A DNA stretch of 64,000 bases, from the NCBI RefSeq assembly GCF_006345805.1, contig NC_043014.1, positions 11,718,001 through 11,782,000 of the forward strand, read 5' to 3'. The notes under the pieces were generated by a model. It searched no databases. It worked only from the letters and a program-made list of their open reading frames with translations, and was not told the DNA's origin. Source of the DNA: Octopus sinensis (lineage: Eukaryota). Made by a program: the position numbers and the translations under genes. Shown here piece after piece: positions 10,565 through 52,630 of this stretch. Position 1 is the stretch's first letter; each line of letters begins with the position of its first letter.

Positions 10565-12480
10565 GAGCGACCCAAAAGAAACCGGAATTTTGCAATATTA
10601 TTTCATTCACTCAGTTTTACATGTTTATACATTTGAAGCAATGCATGCGGCCAGACGCGTTTTCTGCTGTTCGAAGCACTGCTGGAACTTTGCGAAATGA
10701 TGCTTTTGAACGCCTCCGTCGTTTATATCTTTTACTTGTTTCAGCCATTTGACTGCGGCCATGCTGGAGCACCGCCTTTAGTCAAGCAAATCGACCCCGG
10801 GACTTATTCTTTGTAAGCCCAGTACTTATTCTATCGGTCTCTTTTTGCCGAACCACTAAGTGACGGGGACGTAAACACACCAGCATTGGTTGTCAAGCAA
10901 TGCTAGGGAGACAAACACAGACACACAAACATACATATTTATACATATATATACTATATACATATATACGACAGGCTTCTTTCAGTTTCTGTCTAGCAAA
11001 TCCACTCACAAGGCATTGGTCGGCCCGGGGCTATAGCAGAAGACACTTGCCTAAGATGCCATGCAGTGGGACTGAACCCGGAACCATGTGGTTGGTTAGC
11101 AAGCTACTTACCACACAGCCACTCCTATATATATATATATTTTTTTTTTCTTCAACTCTTCCACATCTTCAAATTCTGTAGTGCCAGCTTTTGTCCCCAG
11201 CAGTGGCGGCTCGAATAAAGGCACATTCAATATAATGAGTCCTTTTTCTTCGATTCTTTCTTTATACTTGTACTTTATACAATCCTTAAGCTTAATGTCA
11301 GTAGCCATTCCCTAGTTTATGAAAAAAATACAAAAATCCTTGTATAGAACTGTGCGCTTCGCAGTTCCAGCGACGCGGTGTTTGGTTGTTGTGCGCATGC
11401 TCACATGTCCGAGATAGGAAGATTCACACTAGGGAGAGAGAGCACTGCGTGAATGACAGTGCCAGGTGAAAGGTAGTGTTTCTTTTTGACCCCGAGTGTA
11501 TTATGCTTAAAAACGTGTTTATATTCTTGAATGTGATAACATGTAGAATTAGATTATTACCCTGCTTCCAGCTTCAGTGTTGCGACCAGGGTTGGAAAAA
11601 AGAGAGCACAGTCCCACTTATTTTGTGATTTAGGGGGAATCTTTTTTTTAAAAAGGGGGAATTCGCGGCGGTGTTCAGTAAACAAATTAAACACACTACA
11701 CGACAGTGGCTAAAACGAGAACCGATCAAGTTTATGTATAAATTTTCTTTTCATATGTTTGTTTCCTTTTGCATAATATTAAAACGACGGCTAAAAATTT
11801 TCTGAAACAGCACCCCAACTAATTTTATCTACGAACCGCCACTGGTCCCCAATGATGACCTTCGAAAATAGGTCCGGATTAACTTCACAACACGCATTCA
11901 GTCGTGACTACTTTTGATCTTCCGTGACCAAGTGGCGCACAAATTTTACTGTAACTCTTTTCATTCGCAATTTCTCGCTCAAAATTCGTTGGCAGGAGCT
12001 CCAGGACACACCAGTCATATCAACAAGTTTGTCAATTATTCGGTGATCAGTTCATGAATTTTTGTGATGTCTTTATTCATTCGGGAGGTCGACCAGCCTC
12101 GTCCAGGACGACCGTCGTCCTGAACGAGGTTGGTCTTCAAGTGACAAATAACTATTCCTAAAGCATGAAAATCACTCGTAAACTTATATTTTGCTCATGG
12201 CAGTGTCCTTGTAAGCTGTTGGAAGCATGACAAGTGTTTCGGCTGCCGTCGTCCCCAGCAGAAAACGGGAATTTTTTGGAAGCACGCTGTTTCTTCGTAT
12301 CAACAATCGCAAAAATCGACGAACAGAGAGAAGCACTGCAGAACAAAGATGCACCACGTGACAGTACGACATCAAAGGACGCCGCCGGTCGGCAGACGGA
12401 TGCCTGAGGGTCGCATCAAGAGGCTTCTAGAGGCGGAAGCCTGAACTACAACATGTTTGTCCCATAGAGAACATTTCCGG
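10565..12480 (-). mobile_element. Degenerate mariner transposon remnant interrupted by a SINE B and a hAT MITE
   Basis: N-terminal HTH-like FLLGTTAAETLVMLPTAYKDTAMSK (ORF 12184..12375). A VIIGDKSW-like (ITGDETW) segment spans the MITE junction. C-terminal remnant at ~10640-10720. Confidence 0.65.
11201..11844. mobile_element. hAT-type non-autonomous element (MITE) with 8-bp TSD
   Basis: TIRs cagtggcggctcg / cgaaccgccactg. TSD gtccccag (11193-11200) / gtccccaa (11845-11852). Confidence 0.85.
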
Positions 12481-13149
12481 TTGTATGTCTTTTATATGAA
12501 AATAATAGCTACAAACATTGTAAATACTGTTTTGAAACATTCAAAACCATCGTAAACAATATCTCCAGGCGAATACTGCAATATTTGTAATTAAGTATGA
12601 TACACGGATGTCTATTTTTATCTAATACTGCTTATGATGTAGATCATGGATTTTCATTTAGCCAGATGACAACTTGCAACAGTGGTGATAGATTTCGTCT
12701 AAGTTAGTTGGGAGTGTTCGAACACAATGAAAACGCCCAACGGGGAAGATGTTATCTTTCACATTCACCGCTGCTGGGACGAGTTTCGACTTCTTCCAAT
12801 ATATACATATTGCGTTTTAAAACACAGCTCATCTATAGAAGAAACTATTTCCTGACTAATACCGCAGTAATTTTTGCCTATGACGATATATTTACATCAA
12901 GTATGGTAATTAAAATGGCAATGACATATTTTAAAACAACTCATGTTTCTTTTAATCTAGTGTAGACACTAAACAAAGCACTATTTTAAATAACCTAACA
13001 GTCTGTGCTTCAAAATAGTTTCTAATTTTCTACACTTGTTTACCACTTAAGTATTTATGTCTCAAATTCGGTCTCACTTTCGTCCTCTGCACTCGAACAC
13101 ATCCGGCATCACATACAAATATGTAGCTCTATAACAGTAGTTCTCTATG

Positions 13150-13591
13150 CCGTTCAAGAATTTGGACCTGGAGATCTCCATTTCCAGCGACTTCGAGGGC
13201 CACCTCCCAGTGGTGTCGGGCGTCAACGAAGAGCCCTCAACTACAAGACGACCAAAGTTTTTTTTTTCCAAGGTCTGGGGTCCCCCACCCCTAAGCCCTA
13301 GACTATCACCTAATCACCCTTACTCGTCTTGTTGCTTAACAACAACAACAACAACAACAACAGCAGCAGCAGCAGCAGCAGCAGCCGTTCAAGAATTTGG
13401 ACCTGGAGATCTCCATTTCCAACGACTTCGAGGGCCACCTCCCAGTGGTGTCGGGCGTCAACGAAGAACCCTCGACTGCAACAAGACGACCAAAGTTTTT
13501 TCTCTCCAAGGTCTGGGTTCTCCCACCCCTAAGCCCTAGACCATCACCTAATCACCCTTACCCGTCTTGTTGCTTAACAACAACAATAACA
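13150..13591 (+). mobile_element. Tandem duplicated ~235-bp retroelement 3' end with (CAA)n tail and 16-bp TSD
   Basis: Two copies starting gccgttcaagaatttggacc. Flanked by acagtagttctctatg (13134-13149) and acagcagttctctatg (13592-13607). Confidence 0.7.
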
Positions 13592-13874
13592 ACAGCAGTT
13601 CTCTATGTCGGTGAAATAATGAAGGGCAACGTGGGAATCAACAGGAAACCAGATGTGTTCCACCAAAGATGCTCGAGAAGGGTTCAGAGAATGTACTGGT
13701 AAACCCACAGAACCAATGAAGACATTAAAAAAAACCCCAAAAAAACACTTAGCGAAAACCTTCTCAGAACAGATATTAGAATTAGCTTTCTGTTGGTCCC
13801 AACCGGATGGAAAAGGAAAGAGTAGAAGGTTTCATGGCGCAGAACATTCATTACAGACATTTATTTATGTATAC

Positions 13875-14093
13875 CAGTGCCTTTCAAACTTTTTGCTGGA
13901 GCGGAACCCCAAGGAAACATTCCACTGGCTCGAGGAACCCCTGTGCAATAATTTAATAGTCTTATGCACACATATCTGCACAGGAGAATTAAAAATTACT
14001 GCCGATTTTAGCAGTTTTGTTACTTCTTGCAGAACCCCTGGACTGTACTGGCGGAACCCTAAGGTTCCACGGAACCCTGGTTGAAAACCACTG
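13875..14093. mobile_element. hAT (Charlie-like) MITE with perfect 8-bp TSD
   Basis: TIRs cagtgcctttcaa / ttgaaaaccactg. TSD atgtatac at 13867-13874 and 14094-14101. Internal ggaaccc repeats. Confidence 0.9.
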
Positions 14094-14773
14094 ATGTATA
14101 CAGTTATTTTATGTTCACCGTTTATGTATCTATATCAGGAATATTTGGCAATAGAACCAGGATCCCTATATTCGACGTAAAAAGAAAAACACCAACCCAA
14201 GAATACAATTACATTTCACTAGAATATTGTTTGCGTCATCAAAGCATCTGACCACTCAAGGTTTCGTGTGGAACCGGATCTGACTATAATTTCAACTTCG
14301 GCGCGCTCTTTCTGAAGCAAACCATCCCTTTATGTTCAGTACATTTTAGCCACTACCATCAACAGACGGTGAATGGTAGGCTTCGGATCGGCCACAGAAC
14401 ATAACAATCATCAGACAGTAGCAAAATTAGCAGCTGGCCAGAGTGCTGCGACAACACAAAAACAATGGATAGACGGTAACCGCAACGCACAATGACCAGC
14501 GAACATCACTACAACAACTGCTTTCATACCTAGTCCAGAAACTATTAGTTTCGAACTATCTGGTTGTTTGTCGTTAGTAGTAATAACACTTTTTGTTTAC
14601 GATAAAAATAAACACTTTTTACTCAAAAATCTCAAACGGATTTCAATGTTCTTTTATCGTAACATATCCGTGTATACCTATTTCTTTATTACCCACAAGG
14701 GGCTAAACACAGAGGGGACAAACAAGGACAGACAAACGTATTAAGTCGATTACATCGACCCCAGTGCGTAACT

Positions 14774-15877
14774 GGTACCTAATTTATCGACCCCGAAAGG
14801 ATGAATGGCAAAGTCGACCTCGGCGGAATTTGAACTCACAACGTAACGCAGAGAGTTCAAATTCCGCCGAGGTCGACTTTGCCTTTCATCCGTGTATACC
14901 ATTTTTGTATATGGAACCTAATTTATCGACCCCGAAAGGATGAATGGCAAAGTCGACCTCGGCGGAATTTGAACTCACAAACGCAGAGAGTTCAAATTCC
15001 GTCGAGGTCGACTTTGCCTTTCATCCGTGTATACCATTTTTGTATATGGTACCTAATTTATCGACCCCGAAAGGATGAAAGGCAAAGTCGACCTCGGCGG
15101 AATTTGAACTCACAACGTAACGCAGAGAGTTCAAATTCCGCGAGGTCGACTTTGCCTTTCATCCGTGTATACCATTTTTGTATATGGTACCTAATTTATC
15201 GACCCCGAAAGGATGAAAGGCAAAGTCGACCTCGCGGAATTTGAACTCACAACGTAACGCAGAGAGTTCAAATTCCGCCGAGGTCGACTTTGCCTTTCAT
15301 CCGTGTATACCATTTTTGTATATGGTACCTAATTTATCGACCCCGAAAGGATGAAAGGCAAAGTCGACCTCGGCGGAATTTGAACTCACAACGTAACGCA
15401 GAGAGTTCAAATTCCGCCGAGGTCGACTTTGCCTTTCATCCGTGTATACCATTTTTGTATATGGTACCTAATTTATCGACCCCGAAAGGATGAAAGGCAA
15501 AGTCGACCTCGGCGGAATTTGAACTCACAACGTAACGCAGAGAGTTCAAATTCCGCCGAGGTCGACTTTGCCTTTCATCCGTGTATACCATTTTTGTATA
15601 TGGTACCTAATTTATCGACCCCGAAAGGATGAAAGGCAAAGTCGACCTCGGCGGAATTTGAACTCACAACGTAACGCAGAGAGTTCAAATTCCGCCGAGG
15701 TCGACTTTGCCTTTCATCCGTGTATACCATTTTTGTATATGGTACCTAATTTATCGACCCCGAAAGGATGAAAGGCAAAGTCGACCTCGGCGGAATTTGA
15801 ACTCACAACGTAACGCAGAGAGTTCAAATTCCGCCGAGGTCGACTTGCCTTTCATCCGTGTATACCATTTTTGTATA
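14774..15877. repeat. Tandem array of 8 x ~139-bp units, each with a 39-bp inverted repeat (15-nt loop) derived from SINE family A
   Basis: Unit starts at 14774, 14913, 15048, 15186, 15324, 15463, 15602 and 15741. Consensus: ggatgaaaggcaaagtcgacctcggcggaatttgaactc-acaacgtaacgcaga-gagttcaaattccgccgaggtcgactttgcctttcatcc plus a 46-nt linker. Confidence 0.95.
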
Positions 15878-16799
15878 CGTCACATATGTGTGTATTGATA
15901 TAAACATATAAATTGACTTCCTGCTTTGTAATTGCGTTGTTTGTAAGTACGTCATTGTGTTTGTTGATAATTTGGGTTTGGTTACTTCATCTCACCATAC
16001 GGGTATATAGCGAATTTTTTAATATGGCATTTCTTTCGGCTCATTGCGTTCTGAGTTCAAATTTTGCCTTTCATCCTTTTGATTTACTCTTTACTCTCTT
16101 TTACTCTTTTACTTGTATCAGTCATTTGACTGCGGCCATGCTGGAACACCGCCTTTAGTCGAGCAAATCGATCCCCGGATTTATTCTTTGTAAGCCTAGT
16201 ACTTATTCTATCGGTCATTTTGCCGAACCGCTAAATGACGGGGACGCAAACACACCAGCATCGACACACACACACACACACACACATATATACGACTGGC
16301 TTCTTTCAGTTTCCGTCTAGCAAATCCACTCACAAGGCTTTGGTCGGCCCGAGGCTATAGTAGAAGACACTTGCCCAAGGTACCACACAGTGGGACTGAA
16401 CCCGGAACCATGTGGTTCGTAAGCAAGCTACTTACCACACAGCCACTCCTGCGCCTTTCGTTAAAATAAAGTACCAGTTGCGAACTGGTGCCGATGTAAT
16501 CGATTAAATCCTCCTCCCAGAACTAATCGCCTTGTATCAAAATTTGAAAGAATTATAAGGTGAATAGTACAAATGCGGGGGAGCTGGTGGTATCGTTAGC
16601 AGGTTGAACAAAAATTCATAGCGGCATTTCTTCATGAAATACGTTCTGAGTTCAAATGACGCCGAGGTCAACTTTACCTTTCGTTCTTTTGGTGGGAGGG
16701 GTGGTGAGTAAAATAAAATACCAGTCAAATATTGGAGTTGATGCAATCGATATGCCCTTCTCTTCAAAATTGATGATCTTGTGCCAAAATTAGAAATAA

Positions 16800-18103
16800 T
16801 CTTTCCTAATCGAGGCACAAGGCCCGAAATTTTGGGAGAGAGGGCCAGTCGATTGGCTTGACTCCAGTAAACAACTGGTACTTAATTTTTCGACCACGAA
16901 AGACAAAGTCGACCTTGACGGAATTTGAACTCAGAACATAAAGATAGATGAAATACCTATTTCTTTACTGCCCACAAGGGGCTAAACCTAGAGGGGACAA
17001 ACAAGGACAGACAAACGGATTAAGTCGATTACATCAACCCCAGTGCGTAACTGGTACTTAATTTATCGACTCCGAAAGGATGAAAGGCAAAGTCGACCTC
17101 GGCGGAATTTGAACTCAGAACGTAACGGCAGACGAAATACCTATTTCTTTATTACCCACAAGGGGCTAAACACAGAGAGGACAAACAAAGACAGACAAAC
17201 GAATTAAGTCGATTACATCGACCCAGTGCGTAACTGGTACTTAATTTATCGACCCCGAAAGGATGAAAGGCAAAGTCGACCTCGGCGGAATTTGAACTCA
17301 GAACGTAACGGCAGACGAAATACCACTCAGCATTTCGCCTGGCGTGCTAACGTTTCTGCCAGTTCCACTTACAATACGTGTCACCTAGAATGAGTCAGAC
17401 ATACTTTTTTAATAGATTTTTTCCTTTCTTTGTTCTAATGAAATCCTGTCGTAATTGATTTACAATACGGTTGCAATTGTAATGTAATAATGCAATTGTT
17501 AATGTAATGAAATAATGTGCAATGGCTACAAAGTTAAATGTTATGAATGTGGAAACGAAGAGGATCGTATGGCACATGTATAATAGGGAAAAAAAATCAT
17601 ATTTAAAAGAAATTACATTTATTTATTAGAAGACTATTATTGGTAAGGGAATTAGGCATTTAGTGGAAGTAACTTTGGTAAGTATGGCTCTTATTTCTTT
17701 ATTGCCCACAAGGGGCTAAACATAGAGGGGACAAACAAGGACAGACAAACCGATTAAGTCGATTAGATCGACTCCAGTGCGTAACTGGTACTTAATTTAT
17801 TGACCCTGAAAGAATGAAGGGCAAAGTCGACCTCGGCGGAATTTGAACTCAGAACGTAACGGCAGACGAAATACATATTTCTTTACTACCCACAAGGGGC
17901 TAAACACAGAGGGAACAAACAAGGACAGACAAATGGATTAAGTCGATTATATCGACCCCAGTGCGTAACTGGTACTTATTTAATCGACTCCGAAAGGATG
18001 AAAGGCAAAGTCGACCTCGGTGGAATTTGAACTCAGAACGTAACGGCAGACGAATTACCGGTAAGCATTTCGCCCGGCATGCTAACGTTTCTGCCAGCTC
18101 GCC
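16800..18103 (-). mobile_element. SINE family A tandem multimers (trimer ~16800-17365, dimer ~17690-18103)
   Basis: Repeated body aagtcgacctcggcggaatttgaactcagaacgtaacggcagacgaaatac joined directly to the tail tatttcttta(c/t)tacccacaagggg of the next copy. Confidence 0.85.
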
Positions 18104-19166
18104 TGGTTAGTATGACTCTTGTCGACCGCAATAAGGGTACGCCTGCATCTCGGTAAGAATATAAGGAGTTTGTTACTTTTAAAAAATACTGCAGACGTTT
18201 TGCTAACAAGGCAATGTTGAATTTCGCTTTTAAATTTTTTTTTTCAAAATAAATAAATAAATAAATAAATAAATAAATTTTCTCTTTATTAAAAATAATA
18301 ATATGAATATGGCTAAATTTCAGAACTATTAACTATTAAGCTCTTCTGTTCAATTTTTCAAAAATATTTAAGAGAAAAAGGGAATATGTTCGAAGCATTA
18401 AGTTATACTCTAGGTTTTGGTTCCTGCTGCTGTTTATCTTCCCAAATGTCCCGACGGAAATAAACTTATGCTGCACGCCTCTGATATTTATCATAGTAAA
18501 AACAAAGTTCCTTCACAACATAATCTGACACTATACTCAAAGAATGGTACAGCTGGGTATTGACTGGAGGCCTCTGCGATAAGAGAAAACATTTTCTTTT
18601 TCTTTGCTTTCTTCTGGTTTATCTTTCGTTTCCCCTTTATCATGTTTTATTTTTCTAAAACATACTAAGAGGAAGTTATCTTTTTCATTTCAGAAAAAAG
18701 TAAAAGAAAGAAAAAAAGTGTTAAAATTGCAAGCGCTGCTAAATAGATTTGAATACCAAGTGAACCAAGATAAATTCATTTGTTTCACCATTTTATGTCA
18801 CGCATTCTCACCACGAATCTATTTATTCGTTGAACTCAAGAGAATGCGAATATTTCGAGCTGTTTTCGATCAAAATGTCCATTAATTAGTCCACATCAGA
18901 CATTGAAAATATGATAGCAGAGTGTTACAATCCTCTAAAAATGGAATAACAAATATGCCAAAACGTAACAGAACAAGTAGTAATTGAAATATTAGACAAC
19001 TTTAGAGTCACGTTAAAGAAAATAGGTCAGAACATATTTTTTCCCTCTGCTAAATTACACCCAAGTTTCAAACTGTTTTCTATAAGATTATATCGGATTA
19101 AAATACTACTGGTTAGTTATATAGCTTGGCTTCACTGATTCAAATAACATTTACACCCAGGAGCAT

Positions 19167-20449: not shown

Positions 20450-21445
20450 TTGGTCTCAAATTTTGTCACAAAGCCTGTAGTTTCGAGGAAGGAGATAAGT
20501 CGTTTACATCAACCCCCAGTACTCAACTGGTACTTATTTTATCGACTTGCGAAAGAATGAGGCAATGTCAACCCCAGCGGTATTTTACTTAAAAACTTAA
20601 AGACGGACGAAATGCCACTAAGCATTCTGTCCGACGCGCTAATGATTCTTTTCTACTGTAGGCATTAGGCCCAGAATTTTCGGGGAGTGGGGCCAGTCGA
20701 TTAGATCGATCCCACCACGCAACTGGTCCTTAATATATCGATCCTGAAAGAATGAAAGGCAAAGTCGACCTCGGCGGAATTTGAACTCAGAAAGTAAAGA
20801 CAGACGAAATACCTGTTTCTTTACTACCCACAAGGGGCTAAACACAGACAGGACAAACAAGGACAGGCAAACGGATTAAGTCGATTATATCGACCCCTGT
20901 GCGTAACTGGTACTTATTTAATCGACCCCGAAAGGATGAAAGGCAAAGTCGACCTCGGCAGAATTTGAACTTAGAACGTAGCGGCAGACGAAATGCCGCT
21001 AAACATTCTGTCCGGCGTGCTAATGATTCTGCCAGCTCGCGGCCTTAAGATATGCTTATTATTATACCAAAAGTTAATGGCGGTGAGCTGGCAGAATCGT
21101 TAGCAAGCCGGGCGAAATGTTTAGTGGCATTTCGGCACTGAGTTATTGAAGCGGAAATTTCGCCGAGTTCGACTTCGTCTTTCATTCTTTCGGGGTCGAT
21201 GAAATCGACTTAATCCGTGTGTCTGTCCTTGTTTGTCCCCTCTGTGTTTAGCTCCTTGTGGGTAGTAAAGAAATATGTATTTCGTCTATCGCTACGTTCT
21301 GAGTTCAAATTTCTCTGAGGCCGATTTGCCTTTCATCCTTTCGGGGTCGATAAATTAAGTTCCAGTAAGACTCTGGGTTCAATGTAATCGACTAGTCCAC
21401 TTCCACCAAATTTTAGGCTTTGTGCTTTTAGTAGAAAGAATTATT
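20450..21445. mobile_element. SINE family A cluster: minus-strand copies (~20450-21047) head-to-head with plus-strand copies (~21078-21445)
   Basis: gccagctcgcggcc ends at ~21044 and ggcggtgagctggc starts at ~21079. Confidence 0.85.
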
Positions 21446-29895: not shown

Positions 29896-30505
29896 GGCGG
29901 CGAGCTGGCAGAATCGTTAGCACACCGGGCGAAATACTTAGCGGTATCTCGTCTGCCGTTACGTTCTGAGTTCATATTCCACCGAGGTCGACTTTGCTTT
30001 TCATCCTTTCGGGGTCGATTAAATAAGTACCAGTTACGCACTGGGGTCGATGTAATCGACTTAATCCGTTTGTCTGTCCTTGTTCGTCCCCTCTGTGTTT
30101 AGCCCCTTATGGGTAGTAAAGAAATAGAAATAGGTATTTCGTCTGCCGCTACGTTCTGAGTTTAAATTCTGCCGAGGTCGACTTTGCCTTTCATCCTTTC
30201 GGGGTCGATAAATTAAGTACCAGTCACGACTTAATCGACTTAATCTCTTTGTCTGTCCTTGTTTGTCCCCTCTGTGTTTAGCCCCTTGTGGGCAATAAAG
30301 AAATAAGAATCGTTCGCACGCCAGGCAAAATGTTTAGCGGTATTTCGACCGTCTTTTTACGTTCTGAGTTTAAATTCCGCCGAGCTCGACTTTGTCTTTC
30401 ATCCTATGGGGAACGATATAATTAGTACCAGTTGATCACTGGGGATGATGTCATCGACTTACTCTCTCTACCCCGAAATTGCTGGCCTTGTGCCAAAATT
30501 TGAAA
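29896..30505 (+). mobile_element. SINE family A multimer
   Basis: Starts ggcggcgagctggcagaatcgttagc, followed by three B-box/body repeats. Confidence 0.85.
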
Positions 30506-36013: not shown

Positions 36014-37114
36014 TTAGATAAAATCATTTTCAAATTGAATATGCTTTTGGAATTCTGTGTAAATTTTCAATTCTTTTGGTTGCAATAATTCCAAACAATC
36101 TTTGACAAAATCAACCACTGTTGGAATATGTCCATTTAATGAAAGCGTTTGCCATTTATTTCCAAAAAGTTTAAAGAATTCTTTGTTTTCTTGCATCAAA
36201 TTTTGCGATTCCATCCAAAATTGGTTACTTTGTACAAGAAGTTCTATTATTTCGACATAATCATTATTCAAAGAAAGCCATCGTCTTGAGACAATTATTG
36301 AATGGAAATTTTCATTCTGTGATAAATTAGAATGTTGTTGAATATAATTACCGAACTGCTGAGAAGGAAAATACTTACCAAACAACGTCTTTGATTCTTT
36401 GGTTAAATCAATTTTGAGCTGTTTCATTTTGAAATTTCTTAAGAGATAAATTTTTTGAGCTGCCGCAGTTTGGAGCAAAAGTTTCAATGCTTCCATCCTG
36501 GAATCATTAAAATGGCCAATTTTACCCAAAAACTCGAAGGTAGTCTGAAAAAATGTTACTACAGAATTATGGGGTACTCGTTCTTCTTCCATTCTATGGC
36601 CACACATAATATACCACATTGCGGACATCAAATTCAAAAACTTTTGAGCTGCTGGCTGCATTATTTTAGCCTGGTCTTTCAGATAATTGGCCCTTGCATT
36701 GTAAGAACCTGAATCATTGAAGCAGTGGGTTTCTAACAACCCAGATCCTAACAAGTGTGTATTTGTGTTGAATAGGCCCTCACTCTTTATTCTCCTGTGC
36801 TTCTGAGGATATGGATCTGACCTTAAAGTTTTAATGTCTTTCTGAATACAACAATATGGTATTTTATGAAGTAAAATAGTTTTTATTTTCACCATGATGG
36901 ATATATTCCAATTTTTTCTACTAAAATAGGAATGCTGCATTCTCTTTTTATAATTCTCATCAAATTTAGACTTCATTTTTATTTTTAGTTTGCTATCCAA
37001 TAAAGTCAATGGAATTTTGATGACCAATTTCTTTTCCCTTTGAGTCAGAGAATAAATAGGGAGTCTCAGAAGTGAGCATCTGTGATTGAAGATGTCAAAG
37101 GGCTGACTTTGTAT
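36014..37114 (-). CDS. AF4/FMR2-like protein, C-terminal part (AF9/ENL-binding motif + C-terminal homology domain)
   Basis: The frame is open from 37114 to the stop at 36014. KLVIKIPLTLL matches the LxVxIxLxxL AF9/ENL-binding motif. ARANYLKDQAKIM...AMWYIMCGHRMEEE...FFQTTFEFL and QSNQFWMESQNLMQENKEFF...LSLNGHIPTVVDFVKDCLELLQ align by eye to the AFF CHD (EAKxLKHKADAM...FIECGNAME...ELWEQAExLxKENKEFF...LxxxxxMxxLVxYxxxGLxWLR). Confidence 0.75.
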   Translation of the reverse strand: MQSQPFDIFNHRCSLLRLPIYSLTQREKKLVIKIPLTLLDSKLKIKMKSKFDENYKKRMQHSYFSRKNWNISIMVKIKTILLHKIPYCCIQKDIKTLRSDPYPQKHRRIKSEGLFNTNTHLLGSGLLETHCFNDSGSYNARANYLKDQAKIMQPAAQKFLNLMSAMWYIMCGHRMEEERVPHNSVVTFFQTTFEFLGKIGHFNDSRMEALKLLLQTAAAQKIYLLRNFKMKQLKIDLTKESKTLFGKYFPSQQFGNYIQQHSNLSQNENFHSIIVSRRWLSLNNDYVEIIELLVQSNQFWMESQNLMQENKEFFKLFGNKWQTLSLNGHIPTVVDFVKDCLELLQPKELKIYTEFQKHIQFENDFI

Positions 37115-38985
37115 TTAGGGGAAGAAAAAATCAAAGCAGCTGATATATCTTTTTCTATATTGAGACAGGGCCTCAAGCTCTTTTGATAAGTTCCAGTTGC
37201 ATAAGGTTTTACAAATTCCTGCGTATCAACCATCTGTCTCAGATGACCATCTTTTGAAAATTTATTCTCCAAGACTTTTTCACTAGAAAATGTAATTTTA
37301 AGTGGAGACATTTCAGAGGTATTTGCAAAAGATATTTCATGGGAAGGTGACTGGTGTTCAGTTTTGTACTGATATTTGTAGCTCAGTTCTTTCAAAGGAC
37401 TTTCTTTGGCAATGATCTTAATACTCTTTTCATCTTGTATCTCATTTATGTAAGTGTATTTCGTCTGTTTTATGTATTTATTTTCATCCGCAGCATTAAC
37501 ATGTGGTACAACCTGATGCACAGTCATTGAACACTTTTGCTCCTTTGACATGTTAAAGTTGTATTCCATCATATTCGTTAAGCCCTTTTTCCTTTCGTTC
37601 ATAACAGATTTGTCACTTTTTATGTAGTTAAAACCTTGTGGCAAATCTTTTCTTTCTTTAGGCAATGAACAGTTGGCTATATTATCCAAACTTGAAAGAT
37701 ATTTTTCTGTTTTAGTCATTATTTCGACACTATAGGAATCACTTCTAGGGTAATACAATTTTTTATTAATTTCTTCAATTCCATATTTAATCTTTTTATC
37801 ATATATTGGAGCAGTTGGAGATGTGTGGACAGAAACAACCGAAGTGTTTTTATTATCGGACACATAACCTCCTCTTGAACTCTGCTTTACAACAGAGAAT
37901 TGTGAATACTGAGGTTCTAAAATATGTCTTTCTTTCCATTCTTTCACATTTTCAGATTTCTGTTTTATGTTAAGCTCATCAACAAGAGGAGGCCAGACAT
38001 CATTCAATCCAACATCTTCTGTACTAGGTTCCGAATCATTATTTTCAGTGTTTTTAAATGTTGGACTTTGAATAGGACTAATCGGCTTTAAATTGGCAAT
38101 AATTTCAGAGAATATAGTCTGTAGGGAAATGATTGGTTTATTGCTAACTGGCCTTGACAATCTTTGATCCGGTTGCTTAGAATTTTCCCATTCATTTACG
38201 GGTGAAGAAATCGGGGAGAGGGGAGGCTCAAGAGCTGATTTTACAATTGTCAGCCTAAATATTTCTTCAACACTTTTGTTTTTCAATGAATCCTTTCTGA
38301 TGTCAGTAATCAGAGATTTACCATTTCCTATCTCCTGTTGTTCTGGTTTACAATGCATATCCTTACTGACTCCATTCTTTTGAAGGGTCGTTGCTTGACC
38401 AGATGCTGGTAAAAGAGATGATTGTGTAGGCCCATGATTGTCTGTTGGTATTTCTATATTTAAATCTATGGATTTTACTGGATCAAAATTAATAGGGGTT
38501 GAAGTGTTCTCTGCCTGGTTAAAAGAAGTTAGAACAGTAGAAGGAACAAGTGTTTGTGGAGGCTCTAGGGTCTGGCTGTGTATTTTATTATGATTGCCAT
38601 TACTGTGTATATTTACCTTACATTCATTATTATGGGTTTCTAAAGAGTGTACAACAGATTTAGACTTTTTATTTGCAGAAATAAGTGAAGATGTTGTTTT
38701 CTGATGCCTCATTGGGGGAACCTTAACATCTGGTTGCATATTTTTAGTGAAAGGGCCGATTCCTCTGTATGAAACATCAAGTCTGCGATCTGGGAAATTG
38801 TGTAGAATTTCAGGACGTTCTTGTGAGGAGATGTATATAAAATCAGAAATAAAGTTCTGCATAAGTTCATAGTTTCCAAGAATTCTTTTACACTTTCGGT
38901 TTATTGGATCCTCATTCATCTCAAATATACGACACGGGGAACCAAATACTGGAATGTTTTTCATAGATTCTTCACTATCTGCCAT
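37066..38985 (-). CDS. AF4/FMR2 (AFF/lilliputian)-like protein, N-terminal part (ORF1 of a split single-exon gene)
   Basis: Track ORF 37066..39147 (693 aa) is a long, non-repeat ORF. PVFGSPCRIFEMNEDPINRKCKRILGNYELMQNFI resembles the AFF N-terminal P-TEFb-binding motif (LFGEPYK...RIQxMLGNYEEMKxFI). SVEEIFRL...EPPLSPISSP resembles the ALF/ELL-binding motif ([22 protein letters not shown]). The likely start is the ATG at 38985 (aagatcATGG context), just downstream of a polypyrimidine tract + CAG acceptor. Confidence 0.75.
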   Translation of the reverse strand: MADSEESMKNIPVFGSPCRIFEMNEDPINRKCKRILGNYELMQNFISDFIYISSQERPEILHNFPDRRLDVSYRGIGPFTKNMQPDVKVPPMRHQKTTSSLISANKKSKSVVHSLETHNNECKVNIHSNGNHNKIHSQTLEPPQTLVPSTVLTSFNQAENTSTPINFDPVKSIDLNIEIPTDNHGPTQSSLLPASGQATTLQKNGVSKDMHCKPEQQEIGNGKSLITDIRKDSLKNKSVEEIFRLTIVKSALEPPLSPISSPVNEWENSKQPDQRLSRPVSNKPIISLQTIFSEIIANLKPISPIQSPTFKNTENNDSEPSTEDVGLNDVWPPLVDELNIKQKSENVKEWKERHILEPQYSQFSVVKQSSRGGYVSDNKNTSVVSVHTSPTAPIYDKKIKYGIEEINKKLYYPRSDSYSVEIMTKTEKYLSSLDNIANCSLPKERKDLPQGFNYIKSDKSVMNERKKGLTNMMEYNFNMSKEQKCSMTVHQVVPHVNAADENKYIKQTKYTYINEIQDEKSIKIIAKESPLKELSYKYQYKTEHQSPSHEISFANTSEMSPLKITFSSEKVLENKFSKDGHLRQMVDTQEFVKPYATGTYQKSLRPCLNIEKDISAALIFSSPKYKVSPLTSSITDAHF

Positions 38986-39005
38986 GATCTTAATACGAAA
39001 TACAA

Positions 39006-39084
39006 CTGGAAGAAAAAAAAAATAGAAAAGAAAAAAATTACTGAAAACTGTTAAAATACTAAACTGATAATTCTCTTTACTCAC
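39006..39084 (-). promoter_or_regulatory. Candidate short 5'-UTR intron of the AFF-like gene
   Basis: On the minus strand, GTGAGT donor at 39084-39079, then a long T-rich tract ending TTCTTCCAG at 39006, 20 nt upstream of ATG 38985. The acceptor is better supported than the donor; other possible donors lie at 39090, 39097 and 41643. Confidence 0.45.
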
Positions 39085-40393
39085 ATACACCTGGTACCTT
39101 GAAGATCCACCTTGACACCTGATAACAATGCTTTTATCCTTTTCCATCCTGACCCCATCACCTTCTCTTCTAAAATGTCTATATTCATATAGCTACACTA
39201 CAGCAAGAAACCTGTTCTGCCCTGGCCCTTTTCTCTCATACTAACCCCTCTTATACCTATTTCTTTACTACCCAGAAGGGGGCTAAACACAGAAGGGACA
39301 AACAAGGACAAACAAATGGATCAAGTCAATTATATTGACCCCAGTGCGTAACTGGTCCTTAATTTATCGACCCCGAAAGAATGAAAGGCAGTATCGACTT
39401 TGGCGGAATTTGAACTCACAACGTAGAGGCAGACACAATACTGCTAAGCATTTCGCTCGGTGTGCTAACGTTTCTGCCAGCTCAATCCTTCTCTACTCCT
39501 TATTCTCCTAACATAAATACTCCCCACTTTACTTGGGTTTTTCAGTCTTGTAAGCAACATGGTAACTTCACCAGTGCTGGTTACACAAAGAAAAAAGGAA
39601 AAAAGAAACAACCAGTACATACTATAAAGTGGTTGGTATTAAGAAGTGCATCCAGCCATTGAAACCATGTCAAAGCAGAGACTCTGAAGCATGGTGTGAC
39701 CTTTAGGTACATCAGATCCTATCAAACTGTCCACTTATGTCAGCATGGAACACGGACATAGGAATAATGATGATGATAATGCTGAAGACTTACTATCTCT
39801 CTTTCTCTCTTTTACTTGTTTCAGTCATTTGACTGCGGCCATGCTGGAGCACCGCCTTTAGTCGAGCAAATCGACCCCGGGACTTATTCTTTGTAAGCCC
39901 AGTACTTATTCTATCGGTCTCTTTTGCCGAACCGCTAAGTGACAGGGACGTAAACACACCAGCATCGGTTGTCAAGCAATACTAGGGGGACAAACACTGA
40001 CACACACACACACATACATACATATATATATATATACATATATACGACAAGCTTCTTTCAGTTTCCGTCTACCAAATCCACTCACAAGGCATTGGTCGGC
40101 CCGGGGCTATAGCAGAAGACACTTGCCCAAGATGCCACACAGTGGGACTGAACCTGGAACCATGTGGTTGGTTAGCAAGCTACTTACCACACAGCCACTC
40201 CTGCGCCTATGATTGTAAAGAATAACACTTCCTTCTTTCTACACAGCATTTTGATCAATTTGACTTTCAGTTGTTTTCAGGTATCTCACTCCATCGTTTA
40301 GAAATATGGGTTCCAAGTTGAAATCCATTTAGGTGTGAGGTCAAGAAGCTTGCTTTGCAATCACATGGTTTTGGATTCAGTCCAACCACACAG

Positions 40394-40961: not shown

Positions 40962-41308
40962 ATCCGAGCGTGGCCGTCTGCCAGCCTCGTCTGGCACCTG
41001 TGTCGGTGGCACATAAAAAACACCATCCGAGCGTGGCCGTCTGCCAGCCTCGTCTGGCACCTGTGTCGGTGGCACATAAAAAACACCATCCGAGCGTGGC
41101 TGTCTGCCAGCCTCGTCTGGTACCAGTGTCGGTGGCACATAAAATCACCCACTACACTCTCGGAGTGGTTGGGGTTAGGAAGGGCATCCAGCTGTAGAAA
41201 CACTGCCAGATCTGACTGGCCTGGTGCAGCCTTCGGGCTTGCCAGACCCCAGTTGAACCGTCCAACCCATGCTAGCATGGAAAGCGGACGTTAAACGATG
41301 ATGATGAA
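40962..41308 (+). mobile_element. Retroelement 3' portion with 3 x 63-bp internal tandem repeat and (GAT)n tail
   Basis: atccgagcgtggccgtctgccagcctcgtctggcacctgtgtcggtggcacataaaaaacacc repeated three times, then ttaggaagggcatccagc...aaacgatgatgatg. Degenerate relative at ~39550-39780. Confidence 0.65.
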
Positions 41309-44958: not shown

Positions 44959-47177
44959 AAACGGGATGGTCACAACTAGAAGGTCCTTGACTATAGATCT
45001 ACTCAATCATGGTATGAATTTATTACTTGTGCTTATTAAATTCAATCCTTTTTTGTTGTCGCACCTTGATCACATTCGCCGGGAAAATATTGAGAAAAGA
45101 CGCAGCGTGTGTTCTACTTGGCCATTTGCATCTCAACATAAGTCTACCTTGGCGAAGGCGGATGTAATAAACAGGATGGTCACAACTGGAAGGTCCTTGA
45201 CTATAGATCTACTCAATCAGAACTGACTTGGTGCTAAAGAGCGTCAACGCCCGTCTTTCATAAACCTGAGTAAATTCTCTTGAACTAGACACCAAATGCT
45301 TCTTATAGTGGAGCACCGAAGACTACGCATTTGCATTCACTCGTGTACAAATTGTGAAGAAACCATTTCTTTCGTCTTTTACTTACGACCCAAATTCGGT
45401 TTGATTTATGACGAAACTATAGACACTTGACCATGTTTCCGAAGTTAATTACAGTCCAAAGGTACAAGGCCAGAAATCTGAAGAGATGGGTTAGCCGATT
45501 AAATTGATTTCACTACTTGACTGGCGTGGAGGCGCATGGCTCAGTGGTTAGTGTGTTGAACACATGATCGTAAGATAGTGGTTTCGATTCCTGAACCGGG
45601 CGATGCATTATGTTCTTGAGCGAAAACCTCATTTCACGTTGCTCCTGTCCATTCAGCTGGTACAAATGAGTGATCCTGCGACGGTCCGGGGAATATATAC
45701 ACCAGGGACCCCGGCCCTGTGATCCTTACAGAGTAATGTGGACTAACCAACCACTTGATTGGTGCTTTATATTATCGACCCTTGCGGTTGACAACGGCGG
45801 AATTTGAACCCGAATGATTTCTAATATAAGCTCAAGGCCAGAAAAGCAAGAGCGGGAGAGGGTACAATTGATTAAATCGAAACTCCCTAGTAAGTGATTT
45901 TATGCATTTTACTGCCCCTCATCTCACTCGGAAAAAAAACCCCAAGAGTAAACTCGGCTGCGTTACGATTCGAACTCGCAATGAGAGAGACTATCAAAGG
46001 TTAAATCGAATTTCAAAAACGTGTCATTTATTTATTTTATCTGCTCTGGTGGGATTTGAACTCAAATGATTAAGGTACGTTAGCTAAATACCACAAGGTA
46101 AGTTAATCATAAATTACTCTTTACGCACATCCTTATTTAATACTGAGAATATGTAATGCTTTTACTTATTTCACTCATTGGACTACGGCCATACTGGGGC
46201 ACCGCCTTGAAAGGTTTAGTCGAATAAATCTACCCCAATATTTATTTTAAAGTCTGGTACTTATTCCATCGTTCTTTTTTCTCGTACTGCTACGTTAGGA
46301 GGACGTAAACAACCCAACACCGTTTGATAATCAGTGGTGGGGAGGCAAGTAACACATACACGCACATTATATACAAGGCGGGCTTCCACACAGTTTTCGA
46401 TTACCAAATTGACTCGTAAGGAACTGGTCGGCCCTGGGCCATAATAGGAGACAGTGGACCAATGTGCCACACAGGGAGACAGAACCCGAAGTCATGCGTT
46501 TGCAAAGCAACCGTCTTCACCACATAGCCATGGCTGTGATATAAACGTGGAATATAATATCACAACGGGTTTTAAAAAATATTTAAAATATTTATTCGTA
46601 TTGAAATTGCATATGCAATGTGCCCGACGGAGGTAAAGAATATGCGGACCACCCGTTTTCGGCGTAACCCTAAACGCCGAAAACGGGTGGTGCGCATATT
46701 CTTTACTTTCACCCTGTGTCCTGTAAAGGTTGGACTCTTATCTTGTAAATTACAAATAAAGCGTGTGTCCATAGATTATGAGACACACTGTGTGTGTGTT
46801 GCCGAATCTTTTAGAAATATAATTTCAAATTGACGAGAAGATCGGGTGTCACTTCAGTGTGCGTTATTCCACATCATCCCCTCTCCCATCCGTAAAATAT
46901 ATGTAAATCCATCTGTCTTTTCATCTTGTATATAAGAAGCGTGTATGTATCCTACATGACCCTTGTCTGTCCTTGTAACGTCCCCTCTATGTAAACCTTT
47001 TTATAGGTAAATAAAGAAATGTATTCCACAGCATCTCTGGTCTACACTGTGCAATGATCTCAATCGGTTCGGTGGCCCTTCATGGTATGAATTTATTACT
47101 TGTGCTTATTAAATTCAATCTTTTTATTGTCGCACCGTGATCACATTCGCCGGAAAAATACTGAAAAAAGATGCACA

Positions 47178-47635
47178 TTTCTTTACTACCCACAAGGGGC
47201 TAAACACAGAGAGGACAAACAAGAACAGACAAATGGATTAAGTCGATTATATCGACCCCAGTGCGTAAATGGTACTTATTTAATCAAACCCGAAAGGATG
47301 AAAGGCAAAGTCGACCTCGGCGGAATTTGAACTCAGAACGTAACGGCAGACGAAATACCGCTAAGCATTTCGCCCGGCGTGTTAACGTTTCTGCCAGCTC
47401 GCCGCCCTATTTTTTAGTACCTATTTCTTTATTACTCACAAGGGGCTAAACACAGTGGGGACAAACTAGGACAGACATAGGTATTAAGTCGATTACATCG
47501 ACCCCCAGTGCGTAACTGGTACTTATTTAATCGACCCCGAAAGGATGAAAGACAAAGTCGACCTCGGCGGAATTTGAACTCAGAACGTAACGGCAGACGA
47601 AATACCTTTTAGCATTTCGCCCGGCGTGCTAACCT
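47178..47635 (-). mobile_element. Two SINE family A copies within a duplicated target site
   Basis: Flanked by atactgaaaaaagatgca and atactgagaaaagacgca. An uninterrupted paralogous site lies at ~45010-45140. Confidence 0.8.
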
Positions 47636-50204: not shown

Positions 50205-52630
50205 TGGTACTTACTTAATCGACCCCGAAAGAATGAAAGGCAAAGTCGACCTCGGCAAAATTTGAACACAGAACGTGACGGCAGTTGAAATACCCATTTC
50301 TTTACTACCCACAAGGGGCTAAACACAGAGAGCACAAACAAGGACAGACAAACGGATTAAGTCGATTATATCGACCCCAGTGCGTAACTGGTACTTATTT
50401 AATTGACCCCGAAAGAATGAAAGGCAAAGTCGACCTTGGCAGAATTTGAACACAACGTAACGGCAGATGAAATATCTATTTCTTTACTACCCACAAGGGG
50501 CTAAACACAGAGGGAACAAGCAAGGACAGACAAACGGATTAAGTCGATTACATCGACTCCAGTGCGTAACTGGTACTTATTTAATCGACACCGCAAGGAT
50601 GAAAGGCAAAGTCGACCTAGGCGGAATTTGAACTCAGAACATAACGGTAGACGAAATACCTATTTCTTTACTACCCACAAGGGGCTAAACACAGAGGGGC
50701 CAAACAAGGACAGACAAACGGATTAAGTCGATTATATCGACCCCAGCAACATAAGTGAAATGAACTGATTATACTTGGAGAATCGAAACCGTATCAGTTA
50801 CTCAACCTAGTTAAAGAGATTGTTAGGCAGGACGAGAAATACGTTTTGGCATATTACATGTACGTACAACACCGATTCTTCAGACATTTATGGTCTGGAA
50901 CTTCTTGTAGTCCGCATTAATTAACACTAATGTACAGGTACATGTATTTCATTTGGGTGGATTTAATATTTGAATTTTAAGGATGTGAGCTGATGGAAGA
51001 ATTAGCACGCTGGGGAAAATGCTTAGAACGTAAAGAACAGACGAATTGTCACAGAGGCTAACTTTGCCTTCCATCCTTTCGGAGGTCGATAAATTAAGTA
51101 CCAGTGAAACACTGGGGTCGGTGTATTCGACTAGTTTCTGCCCCCAAAATTTCAGGCCTTCAACCTTTAGCAGAAAGGATTATCATTATTACGGCAGTGA
51201 ATGTGGCGAGCTGGCAGAATCGTTAGCACGCCGGGCGAAATGCTTAGCGACATTTCGTCTGCCGTTACGTTCTGAGTTCAAATTCCGCCGAGGTCGACTT
51301 TGCCTTTCATCCTTTCGGGTCGATTAAATAAATACCAGTTACGCACTGGGGTCGATGCAATCGACTTAACCTCTTGTTTGTCCTTGTTTGTCCCTTCTGT
51401 GTTTAGCCCCTCGTGGGTAGTAAAGAAATAGATATTTCGTCTGCCGTTACGTTCTGTGTTCAAATTCTGTCGAGGTCGACTTTGCCTTTCATTCTTTCGG
51501 GGTCGATTAAATAAGTACCAGTTATGCACTGGAGTCGACCTAATCGAATTAATCCCTTCCCCCAAATTTGAGGCCTTCTGCTTACAGTAGAAAGAATTAT
51601 TAAGACAGCGAGCTGGCAGAATCGTTAAGACACCGGGTAAAATGTTGAGTGGCATATCGCTCGTCTTTACGTTCTGAGTTCAAATTTCACCGGGGTCAAA
51701 TTTACCGTTCATCCTTTCGGGGGTCGATAAAATAAGTACCAGTTAAACACTGGGGTCGATATAATCGCCGACTTACCCCCTCCCCCGAAATTACAGGCCA
51801 AAATTTTAAATCGATAGTAGTTTAATTTAAAATATGTTGATCAAGATGACCATCCCTTTAATTGCCTGTACCATGTACTCACACAAGAATTTTATTTGGC
51901 GTGAAATGAGCTCTCTAAGGAGTATAGATTCAAATAAAGGCCAAGATCTGCTATCGATTCTGGGTTTAAGAGCAGACCCTTTCATTTCGTTAATACCTCT
52001 TTGGAAAATTATAGAGGTATAACACGGATTTTCCCGAATCTTTCGTTTCAAATCCTTTCCAGAGTACTGATTTTTCCGAACCAAGTGTAGCCACCTTGAT
52101 TAGCACATTCTAAATTAAACATTCTTTTCTACTTTAGGCACAAGGCCCGAAATTTTGGGAGGAGGGGACCAATCGATTAGATCGACCCCAGTACACAGCT
52201 GGTACTTAATTTATCGATCCTGAAAGGATGAAAGACAAAGTTGATCTCGGCGGAATTTGAACACTGCCCGGCGTGCTAACGTTCCTGCCAGCTCGCCGCC
52301 TTAAATTAAACATAGTTTAAATTTACTTAAATACAGGAATTAAATACACTCAATAATAATAATAATAACGATAATACATTTGTAAATTTTGGCGCAAGGC
52401 CAGAAATTTTGAGGGAAAGAGAAATCAATTGCATTCAACTGGTACTTATTTCCTCGACCCCTGAAAACTTTGAAAGGCAAAATCGACCTCCTTTGAACTC
52501 AGAACGTAAAGCCAGAAGAAATGCCGCTAAGCATTTTTCTCCGGGTTGCTAACGATTCTGCCAAATTGCCGCCGTATTGATAATCCTCATTAATATAGGT
52601 ACAAAGCCTGAAAGTTTGGGGAAAGGGGCC
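50205..52630. mobile_element. Dense SINE family A cluster (minus ~50205-50745, plus ~50985-51800, minus ~52125-52630)
   Basis: Many near-identical body/tail repeats. Further family A copies lie at ~39258-39483, 42960-43340, 48543-48750, 49100-49310 and 57710-58310. Confidence 0.85.

Follow-up and report, generated by a model that had tools for sequence, protein, structure and literature searches.

How does one SINE insertion become a row of eight hairpins, and does such a row serve a function or record an accident? Both questions are raised by a tandem array in Octopus sinensis (assembly GCF_006345805.1, contig NC_043014.1). The window analyzed here is the whole stretch of 64,000 nt at positions 11,718,001 to 11,782,000 of that contig, and all coordinates below are counted from its first letter. 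The answer that we consider probable is that the array is a by-product confined to a single locus: SINE cDNA would have snapped back on itself at insertion and later DNA-level tandem duplication would have multiplied the product, probably with no dedicated function.

Architecture of the array

TRF reported a single array, located at 14773-15877, with a period of 139, 8.0 copies, 98% matches, 1% indels and a score of 2133. Both the array and its copy number are known from one assembly. TRF, unit alignment and blastn to a SINE reference (a 233-nt full-length copy at 47176-47408 of the same window) delimited eight tandem units of 135-139 bp (139, 135, 138, 138, 139, 139, 139 and 138 bp for units 1-8 respectively). 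Each is made up of SINE positions 59-144 in minus orientation, a 15-nt loop, a 39-nt inverted arm and a 20-bp linker, and ~119 of the 139 bp per unit align to the reference (positions 59-144 and 75-113). With head-to-tail repetition and a unit built from a portion of a SINE, the array is a SINE-derived minisatellite, a known class.

The units differ from one another in a few places: an A>T change is common to units 1 and 2; unit 2 has, in addition, a 4-bp deletion in its loop and two substitutions, three changes that are private to it; a single base is missing, within a short run, from each of units 3, 4 and 8, and these 1-bp deletions could be consensus errors. The central units 5-7 (15323-15739) are identical, each with a perfect 39-bp stem that folds at -54.0 kcal/mol with no mismatch, while the stems of the remaining five units have one mismatch or a 1-nt bulge. 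These are inverted repeats of the long, perfect or near-perfect kind that defines hairpin RNAs. Folded as DNA, a unit reached -54 kcal/mol (z of -16.5 versus shuffles); folded as RNA, two units reached -170.3 kcal/mol (z of -22 versus shuffles).

The string GAGTTCAAATTCC, which resembles the B-box consensus, occurs exactly 16 times in the array (14825-15832), in strictly alternating orientation (-/+); at up to one mismatch it has 37 matches in the whole window, versus 0.12 expected from shuffles. Missing from the SINE copy of the array is the tRNA-like head (reference positions 1-58), the part expected to hold the A box; the copy itself thus has neither that box nor a full internal pol III promoter. 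The Rfam search returned only sub-threshold generic miRNA-precursor hairpins (the best being mir-3150, at 50.4 bits versus a gathering score of 100), and ARAGORN found no tRNA. A hammerhead retrozyme or circular RNA, considered as the origin of both the SINE multimers and the array, was rejected, as no hammerhead was detected in 14000-18500 at E up to 1.

An earlier note, made from the letters alone, had described most of this architecture, and its description proved accurate: the near-identical 139-bp unit of hairpin plus flank repeated eight times, the SINE lying on the minus strand from 14679, the 16 B-box motifs in alternating orientation, the intact CpGs (10-11 in each unit) and the return of unique DNA from 15878. 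The 39-bp inverted repeat that it saw in every unit is likewise present as 39-nt arms around the 15-nt loop, with a perfect stem only in three of the eight units.

A 5'-truncated SINE with an inverted 5' segment

The SINE landed at, or just past, the end of an older interspersed repeat that makes up the left flank (14200-14670). Against the genome, 14380-14680 had 42 matches at 68-83% identity, and in the four best copies of this repeat (L032-L035) homology starts from ~14200 and ends at ~14664-14671. The left flank of the array is repeat DNA, not unique sequence. In the ORFs adjoining the array (12169-14084) no Pfam match was found, and a protein search at 'near' lengths gave no match.

The left copy of the TSD, (ATCC)GTGTATACC, lies on the plus strand at 14666-14678, and the same 13 bases (ATCCGTGTATACC) end every unit and recur at 15854-15866. 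Directly after it comes the 5'-truncated SINE (14679-14852, minus strand, reference positions 59-232), whose tail abuts the TSD; by blastn, 14680-14852 on the minus strand is 91.4% identical to reference 59-232. Next, on the plus strand, SINE positions 75-113 recur in inverted orientation as a 39-nt snap-back piece (14853-14891; 100% identity by blastn), which pairs with 14799-14837 and ends in ATCC. Since these four letters are common to the SINE arm and to the target, the end of the fold-back is a 4-nt microhomology. The first linker (14892-14911, plus strand) consists of 9 bp of TSD (GTGTATACC) and 11 bp of right-flank DNA (ATTTTTGTATA), and directly after it stands the duplication junction, TATA joined to TGGTACC. 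At the far end, the right and last TSD copy occupies 15854-15866 on the plus strand, and unique flank runs from 15867/15878. Thus the locus has the marks of a snap-back insertion: a TSD around the whole insertion, an intact SINE 3' end and an inverted 5' segment joined with microhomology.

Uniqueness of the locus and its presence in relatives

The 2.72-Gb assembly was searched at up to two mismatches with a 32-mer across the linker junction and a 31-mer across the loop junction, the latter a search that the earlier note had proposed; all seven matches of each fell at the array locus. Because both junctions are unique to this locus, the array traces to a single-locus event and a dispersed mobile family is excluded. 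A MITE or fold-back transposon was rejected on the same ground, there being no dispersed copies and the loop and linker junctions being confined to one locus in 2.72 Gb.

The insertion itself is lineage-restricted. Three runs of closer relatives, representing organisms A, B and C, carry the filled left junction between flank and SINE, and short-read contigs cross from left-flank DNA into the SINE, reaching 14695-14699, in X1 (628 nt, 2 differences), X3 (623 nt, 3 differences) and X4 (321 nt, 2 differences). In organism D, a related species, the site is empty: record 25 of run X7 (3938 nt) aligns to 14303-14636 and 15854-16064, with only ~19 letters between the aligned pieces versus 1217 bases in the window, and one TSD copy. 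Over 15854-15883 organism D has no listed difference, so that the linker is genuine ancestral flank DNA. An empty allele, suggested as a check by the earlier note, was not found in the assembly, the sole near-match of the predicted empty-site string (2 mismatches) being the array's own right edge, with no haplotig without the insertion.

Contig cover of 15276-15641 has zero depth, probably from the identity of the units, and bin 15947-16007 has no X1, X3 or X4 cover; neither proves anything. The organism D runs have an indexed-word share of 0.32, that of the generic-SINE class (0.316), from 111 sampled words. Runs X15-X20, guessed to be RNA, contain 0.06-0.18 of the indexed words, which is no evidence either way. 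The RNA raw-read runs come from organism D, where the insertion is absent.

Other fold-backs and arrays of the same SINE

Two inverted 16-nt B-box motifs 0-30 nt apart were used as a fold-back pattern, which occurs at 45 places in the genome: five in the array and 40 elsewhere, with different loops. The pattern admits only loops of up to 30 nt, so it gives no ground for claiming that fold-back points gather near the head/body boundary. In ten of the 15 fold-back loci fetched, the inverted-repeat arms were shorter than 80 nt; one arm is then a tail-less internal fragment, which cannot be an independent insertion. Some of the 40 others, above all where the arms span 95-160 nt, could instead be pairs of SINEs that inserted independently head to head. 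All 15 of the other fold-back loci examined were unamplified.

Arrays are also common. Three GTTCAAATTCC motifs spaced 105-135 nt apart had 126 matches, and the 100 matches listed represent 30 loci including the array; at least 29 other loci therefore have evenly spaced SINE motifs. All 14 of these that were fetched are SINE-derived tandem arrays, with periods of 116-146 and 3.6-21.3 copies. At least six of the 14 have 13-38 nt of the unit unaligned to the SINE reference, and the units of several consist of internal SINE DNA only. In the window, moreover, the SINE body forms head-to-tail multimers; at seven places the tail is joined to reference positions 50-52, perhaps a trace of template jumping. 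With SINE arrays and fold-backs of this sort common in the genome, the locus stands out less than the earlier note supposed. In the open-access literature searched we found no description of multimers or fold-backs of the octopus SINE, and three SINE strings searched in full text returned none; in PMC9795677, a search for 'SINE' matched only 'sinensis'.

Probable origin by snap-back and growth by tandem duplication

The structure suggests the following course. Target-primed reverse transcription would have started from the plus-strand end ...GTATACC-3', and synthesis along the SINE RNA would have come within 9 nt of the head/body boundary. Next, the cDNA may have snapped back at its 3' end and copied 39 nt of itself; a second priming event on the RNA could give the same inverted piece, but is less likely. 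The new end, ...CATCC, would have paired with ATCC in the staggered overhang of the target, and fill-in would have left a TSD of 9-13 bp. Later, a 139-bp segment that begins within the SINE (TGGTACC) and ends 11 bp past the TSD would have been duplicated, with no microhomology at the junction, and further growth may have come from unequal exchange or replication slippage, possibly with the help of the hairpin.

Precedents exist for the first part of this course. For R2, target-primed reverse transcription yields a 'snap-back' class of 5' junctions, in which the 3' end of the cDNA primes synthesis complementary to the cDNA (PMC11371274); in L1 twin priming, 5' ends are joined by microhomology and the junctions show only 1-10-bp deletions or duplications (PMC11702581). 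As described in these two sources, the octopus locus resembles both in having an inverted piece at the 5' end of a TSD-flanked, 5'-truncated insertion with a microhomology join. Unlike the L1 junctions described there, its 39-nt inverted piece is wholly duplicated in the direct arm, and snap-back is therefore preferred over twin priming.

The earlier note had proposed a recent origin by template switching followed by rolling-circle or slippage amplification. The fold-back at the 5' end of a TSD-flanked insertion, the ATCC microhomology, the empty site, the ancestral flank DNA in the linker and the fold-backs at ~40 other places bear out its account of the origin in outline. A single rolling-circle burst is disfavored: the variant shared by units 1 and 2 and the uneven divergence of the units favor several DNA-level steps. 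As the duplication junction is without microhomology, the mechanism of amplification cannot be read from the sequence. Unequal exchange between TSDs, as in the bivalve TSD1-(SINE-TSD1)n model, was rejected for the array: its unit is not bounded by TSDs, and such exchange cannot explain it.

Alternative explanations

Three other explanations would account for the locus differently. The array is seen in a single assembly, and it, or at least its copy number, might be an artefact of long-read assembly, the real locus holding one SINE, fold-back and flank unit, or fewer units. The scattered 1-bp deletions do resemble consensus errors, and the linker or loop junction is in none of the listed X1, X3 and X4 contigs (contigs show presence, not absence); the X1 indexed-word share of 0.53 equals that of generic-SINE plus left-flank words (0.316 + 0.214), as would be expected were array-specific words missing from its contigs, a suggestive figure that is drawn from 111 words and is not evidence of absence. 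We nevertheless regard an artefact as unlikely: the left junction was confirmed in three runs, De Bruijn contigs are expected to break in SINE-rich repeats, and the differences among the units are structured (a substitution shared by units 1 and 2, private substitutions plus the 4-bp deletion in unit 2), unlike those of mechanical over-expansion. Moreover, the general structure is shared by all 14 other arrays fetched from the assembly, and by arrays in other molluscs (PMC11481361). Somewhat more doubtful is an origin of the whole array in one retrotransposition event, by rolling-circle synthesis or repeated template switching and with no later DNA-level duplication. In each unit the TSD is followed by 11 bp of chromosomal DNA that organism D has only once at its empty site; the enzyme would need to run on into target DNA and, seven times, come back to one and the same SINE position. 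One event would fit the exact likeness of the two junctions in all units, the template jumping and snap-back documented for non-LTR reverse transcriptases (PMC11371274) and the head-to-tail body multimers formed by the same SINE, maybe by template jumping, but the variant that units 1-2 have in common and the unequal divergence of the units indicate more than one step, and the several other arrays built of internal SINE DNA only fit DNA-level duplication.

The third alternative is that the array is functional, as a hairpin precursor of endo-siRNAs against the SINE, a strong ADAR substrate or a TFIIIC boundary with 16 B boxes. Eight tandem hairpins with perfect or near-perfect 39-bp stems and extreme fold z-scores, the 16 B-box-like motifs and an architecture like that of the Drosophila hp-CG4068 hpRNA cluster (PMC10317233) would all suit such a role. 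It is nonetheless very unlikely. The headless SINE copy provides neither an A box nor a complete internal pol III promoter, the generic miRNA-precursor matches in Rfam are weak (some 50 bits or less versus gathering scores of 100) with no tRNA by ARAGORN, and the locus, missing from organism D, is very young. Moreover, the same dsRNA would come from ~40 further fold-backs and from many inverted pairs of SINEs, and similar arrays without hairpins are common, which argues for a mutational by-product. Slimmer still is the prospect of a newborn hairpin-RNA locus, in which read-through from either strand would yield 39-bp dsRNA stems and thence siRNAs or ADAR hyper-editing against a SINE that ranks among the most abundant in the octopus; were it true, the array would be to cephalopods what hp-CG4068 is to Drosophila, seen at its very start. 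Snap-back followed by DNA-level duplication thus stays the probable explanation, and the locus by itself is probably neutral.

Comparison with known SINE arrays and hairpin clusters

SINE-derived arrays and palindromic SINE structures have been reported in bivalves (PMC11481361), and SINE-derived satellites (sSats) in squamates (PMC10702118). Like the squamate sSats and the bivalve TSD1-(SINE-TSD1)n and TSD1-(SINE)n-TSD1 arrays, the octopus array repeats portions of a tRNA-derived SINE head-to-tail, sometimes with target-site DNA between them, and arrays of this kind have a few to tens of copies and arose independently at many loci (PMC10702118, PMC11481361). As far as those arrays are described in the two sources, the octopus unit differs in starting inside the SINE and ending 11 bp past the TSD, and in holding an inverted SINE copy, which makes it a hairpin; it also stands at a single locus and is not a satellite family. 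The palindromic SINEs of bivalve introns are likewise inverted SINE copies capable of forming dsRNA if transcribed, and a possible link to Dicer was raised by the authors (PMC11481361). In that description, the bivalve palindromes are alternating insertions of whole elements (PMC11481361), whereas one octopus arm is a 39-nt internal fragment, probably made during a single insertion.

Among hairpin clusters, hp-CG4068 comprises 20 tandem copies in D. melanogaster and nine in D. simulans, all from one transcript, and its copy number shifts quickly between close species (PMC10317233). It shares with the octopus array many tandem copies of one hairpin in the same orientation (PMC10317233). As presented in that source, hp-CG4068 is transcribed and gives Dicer-2-dependent siRNAs with known targets (PMC10317233). 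The stems of the octopus array, of 39 bp, are SINE-derived and very young in evolutionary terms.

Significance

The locus is a clean, datable case in which one accident of retroposon insertion seeded a minisatellite, with its steps still legible in the sequence: the TSD, the microhomology, the captured flank and the empty site of a relative. If transcribed, the array would form dsRNA. Beyond this locus, the frequent SINE fold-backs and arrays of SINE parts in the octopus genome are relevant to repeat annotation and to quality control of assemblies, and they bear on searches for the dsRNA substrates of cephalopod RNA editing or RNAi.

Structure of the hairpin array

A tandem array occupies window positions 14773-15877 (8.0 copies, period 139, 98% matches, score 2133). 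Cut at a recurring motif, its units measure 139, 135, 138, 138, 139, 139, 139 and 138 bp: units 5-7 are identical to one another, one base is missing from a short run in each of units 3, 4 and 8, unit 2 carries two substitutions and a 4-bp deletion in the loop, and an A>T change is common to units 1 and 2. Per unit a 15-nt loop lies within a 39-nt inverted repeat, the stem being free of any mismatch in units 5-7 and carrying one mismatch or bulge in the remaining five. The array holds 16 copies of the B-box-like motif GAGTTCAAATTCC, strictly alternating in orientation, and the entire window 37 (up to one mismatch; 0.12 expected from shuffles). The computed fold of a single unit as DNA was -54 kcal/mol (z -16.5) and that of two units as RNA -170.3 kcal/mol (z -22). 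The period, units, stem and loop, and 16 alternating motifs described in the earlier note were thus borne out in all details checked.

A single locus with a lineage-specific insertion

Junction words were searched with up to two mismatches in the 2.72-Gb assembly (13,516 contigs). The 31-mer across the loop junction, whose genome search the earlier note had proposed, gave seven matches, as did the 32-mer across the linker/unit junction, and all of them were inside the array. Since both junctions are confined to it, a MITE, a fold-back transposon and a dispersed satellite are excluded. The predicted empty-site string had no match in the assembly except the right edge of the array itself.

Contigs from four public sequencing runs were compared with window 14300-16100. 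The runs X1, X3 and X4 (organisms A, B and C) each yielded one contig that crosses from left flank to SINE (14300-14699, 14300-14695 and 14379-14699; 2-3 differences), by which the insertion is common to these three close relatives. From the more distant organism D (run X7), a 3938-nt contig aligned to 14303-14636 (25 differences) and 15854-16064 (11 differences) with only ~19 letters between the two pieces; therefore its site is empty of both SINE and array, and the insertion postdates the separation from organism D (flank divergence 5-7%). The right piece begins precisely at the first base of the target-site duplication (TSD), and the comparison tables list no difference over 15854-15883, so the linker found in each unit is truly ancestral flank DNA.

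Among the contigs of X1, X3 and X4 that were listed, in tables dominated by SINE matches, none carried a linker or loop junction. When 31-mers of the stretch were assigned to classes, generic SINE made up 0.316, the left flank 0.214, the linker 0.209, the loop 0.136 and the right flank 0.126 of them. The share of indexed words was 0.32 in the organism D runs and 0.53 in X1, the latter equal to SINE plus left flank, a pattern expected if array-specific words are absent from the X1 contigs, to be read with caution given the fragmentary nature of repeat contigs and a sample of only 111 words. The array and its copy number are known from one assembly, the copy number being the main reservation.

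Origin and amplification

The SINE reference was a full-length copy from within the window (47176-47408, minus strand, 233 nt). The copy at the array (14680-14852, minus strand) covers reference positions 59-232 at 91.4% identity, without the tRNA-like head (~50 nt), and is followed by the inverted arm (14853-14891, plus strand; reference positions 75-113, 100% identity). The last five bases of this second arm are CATCC, and at the target one reads ...ATATCC GTGTATACC ATTTTTGTATA CGTCAC...; both carry ATCC, which is thus a 4-nt microhomology. The TSD, (ATCC)GTGTATACC (9-13 bp), lies at 14666-14678 and again past the fold-back. The unit spans from TGGTACC within the SINE to 11 bp beyond the TSD, and at the duplication junction between TATA and TGGTACC microhomology is absent. 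The left flank (14200-14670) is an older interspersed repeat with 42 genome matches (68-83% identity), and homology among the four best copies compared stops at most ~10 bp from the SINE insertion point.

Two inverted 16-nt B-box motifs 0-30 nt apart were found 45 times, five times in the array and 40 times elsewhere with many different loops. At 15 fetched fold-back loci the arms reach 16-160 nt, and in ten they are shorter than 80 nt, so that one arm, an internal fragment with no tail, cannot be a separate insertion. None of the 15 showed tandem amplification; at one, a 33-bp x 2 duplication adjoins the hairpin. In the snap-back 5' junctions described for R2 proteins, the cDNA 3' end primes cDNA-complementary synthesis before target joining (PMC11371274), and the array fold-back would be of the same class. 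For L1, PMC11702581 describes 5' joining that relies on microhomology, and twin-priming inversions with internal breakpoint deletions or duplications of just 1-10 bp; the 39-nt full overlap fits snap-back better than twin priming.

In the history that we propose, ...GTATACC-3' would have primed reverse transcription, which would have halted 9 nt before the head/body boundary; the cDNA would then have snapped back over 39 nt, its end annealing at ATCC and the TSD being filled in. A tandem duplication of the 139-bp segment would have followed, and then more rounds, by unequal exchange or slippage, the latest giving the three identical central units. The earlier note had offered rolling-circle amplification or slippage. 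A single rolling-circle burst is disfavoured, because a variant is common to units 1 and 2, unit 2 has private changes, and chromosomal DNA from past the TSD is present in every unit, which together favour several DNA-level steps; slippage is kept as a possible later step.

Other SINE-derived arrays and multimers

Three GTTCAAATTCC motifs at 105-135-nt spacing were found 126 times; the 100 matches listed represent at least 30 loci, and 12 of them, on both strands, belong to the array. All 14 other loci fetched, chosen for at least two overlapping matches each, are SINE-derived arrays (periods 116-146 bp, 3.6-21.3 copies). Both-strand matches, i.e. a hairpin in the unit, were confined within this sample to the array at 14773-15877. 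In at least six of the 14, 13-38 nt of the unit could not be aligned to the SINE reference, resembling the captured flank of that array. The units of L049 (C2:140699387-140702158, 21.3 x 130 bp) and L060 (C6337:17489-19575, 17.4 x 120 bp) consist of SINE head, B-box region and a 14-18-nt non-SINE spacer, while that of L061 (C6359:2941-4800, at least 13.8 x 136 bp) aligns to the SINE along its full length (reference positions 8-143); these three may have arisen by amplification of 5' SINE halves, or may be arrays of the small-RNA gene from which the SINE descended. Two tandem duplications in the window, at 13149-13594 (238 bp x 1.9, with AAC/CAG microsatellites, in an open frame without family match) and 40962-41144 (63 bp x 2.9), are unrelated.

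The 184-nt SINE body forms head-to-tail multimers at seven places (16847-17365, 17693-18103, 20695-21044, 21079-21402, 29896-30464, 50205-50746 and 51205-51558), each with a single tRNA-like head and 2-4 body copies, the tail running straight into reference positions 50-52 (GGTATTTCG). They match the TSD1-(SINE)n-TSD1 structure described for a blood clam (PMC11481361); either template jumping or master copies that are themselves multimeric might account for them. The last five target bases before the array's SINE (ATACC, 14674-14678) are complementary to GGTAT, the start of the next multimer body unit; more speculatively, the template may have been a multimeric SINE transcript, with reverse transcription primed at one of its unit junctions. 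A second abundant SINE type (16800-16957) has the 5' part in common as far as about reference position 168-178, beyond which another 3' module (...GGCCCGAAATTTTGGGAGAG...) takes over. Many short-read contigs diverge from the window at 14742-14744, the 3'-module switch point, and mosaic subfamilies are thus suggested.

Function and significance

With the tRNA-like head missing, the internal pol III promoter of the array's SINE copy is incomplete. The Rfam scan returned only generic, sub-threshold miRNA-precursor hairpin matches and no hammerhead, ARAGORN found no tRNA, and the ORFs adjoining the array have no family match; across promoter, Rfam, ARAGORN and neighbouring ORFs, no positive indication of function was found. 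The nearest recognisable gene, of the AF4/FMR2 family, is ~20 kb away on the opposite strand. Two long open frames (366 and 708 aa) lie there at 36014-39192 on the minus strand; in the 366-aa frame Pfam recognises the AFF4 C-terminal homology domain (E 4.2e-11), and this frame shares 99% identity with a 990-aa protein that bears the label Octopus vulgaris at NCBI, putting the window in or close to that species group. Among functional systems, the Drosophila tandem hairpin-RNA cluster hp-CG4068 (PMC10317233) would come closest, and that the array is such a hairpin-RNA locus appears very improbable.

The array looks like a real single-locus, lineage-specific hairpin minisatellite, probably neutral, which a SINE snap-back insertion would have seeded. 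Comparable tandem and palindromic SINE structures, some arrays with TSDs between units, are described in bivalves (PMC11481361), SINE-derived satellites in squamates (PMC10702118), and further SINE-to-satellite cases are tabulated in a review (PMC9659126). SINE-derived arrays are thus already a known kind, and among the loci inspected both fold-backs and arrays of SINE parts are common in the O. sinensis genome.
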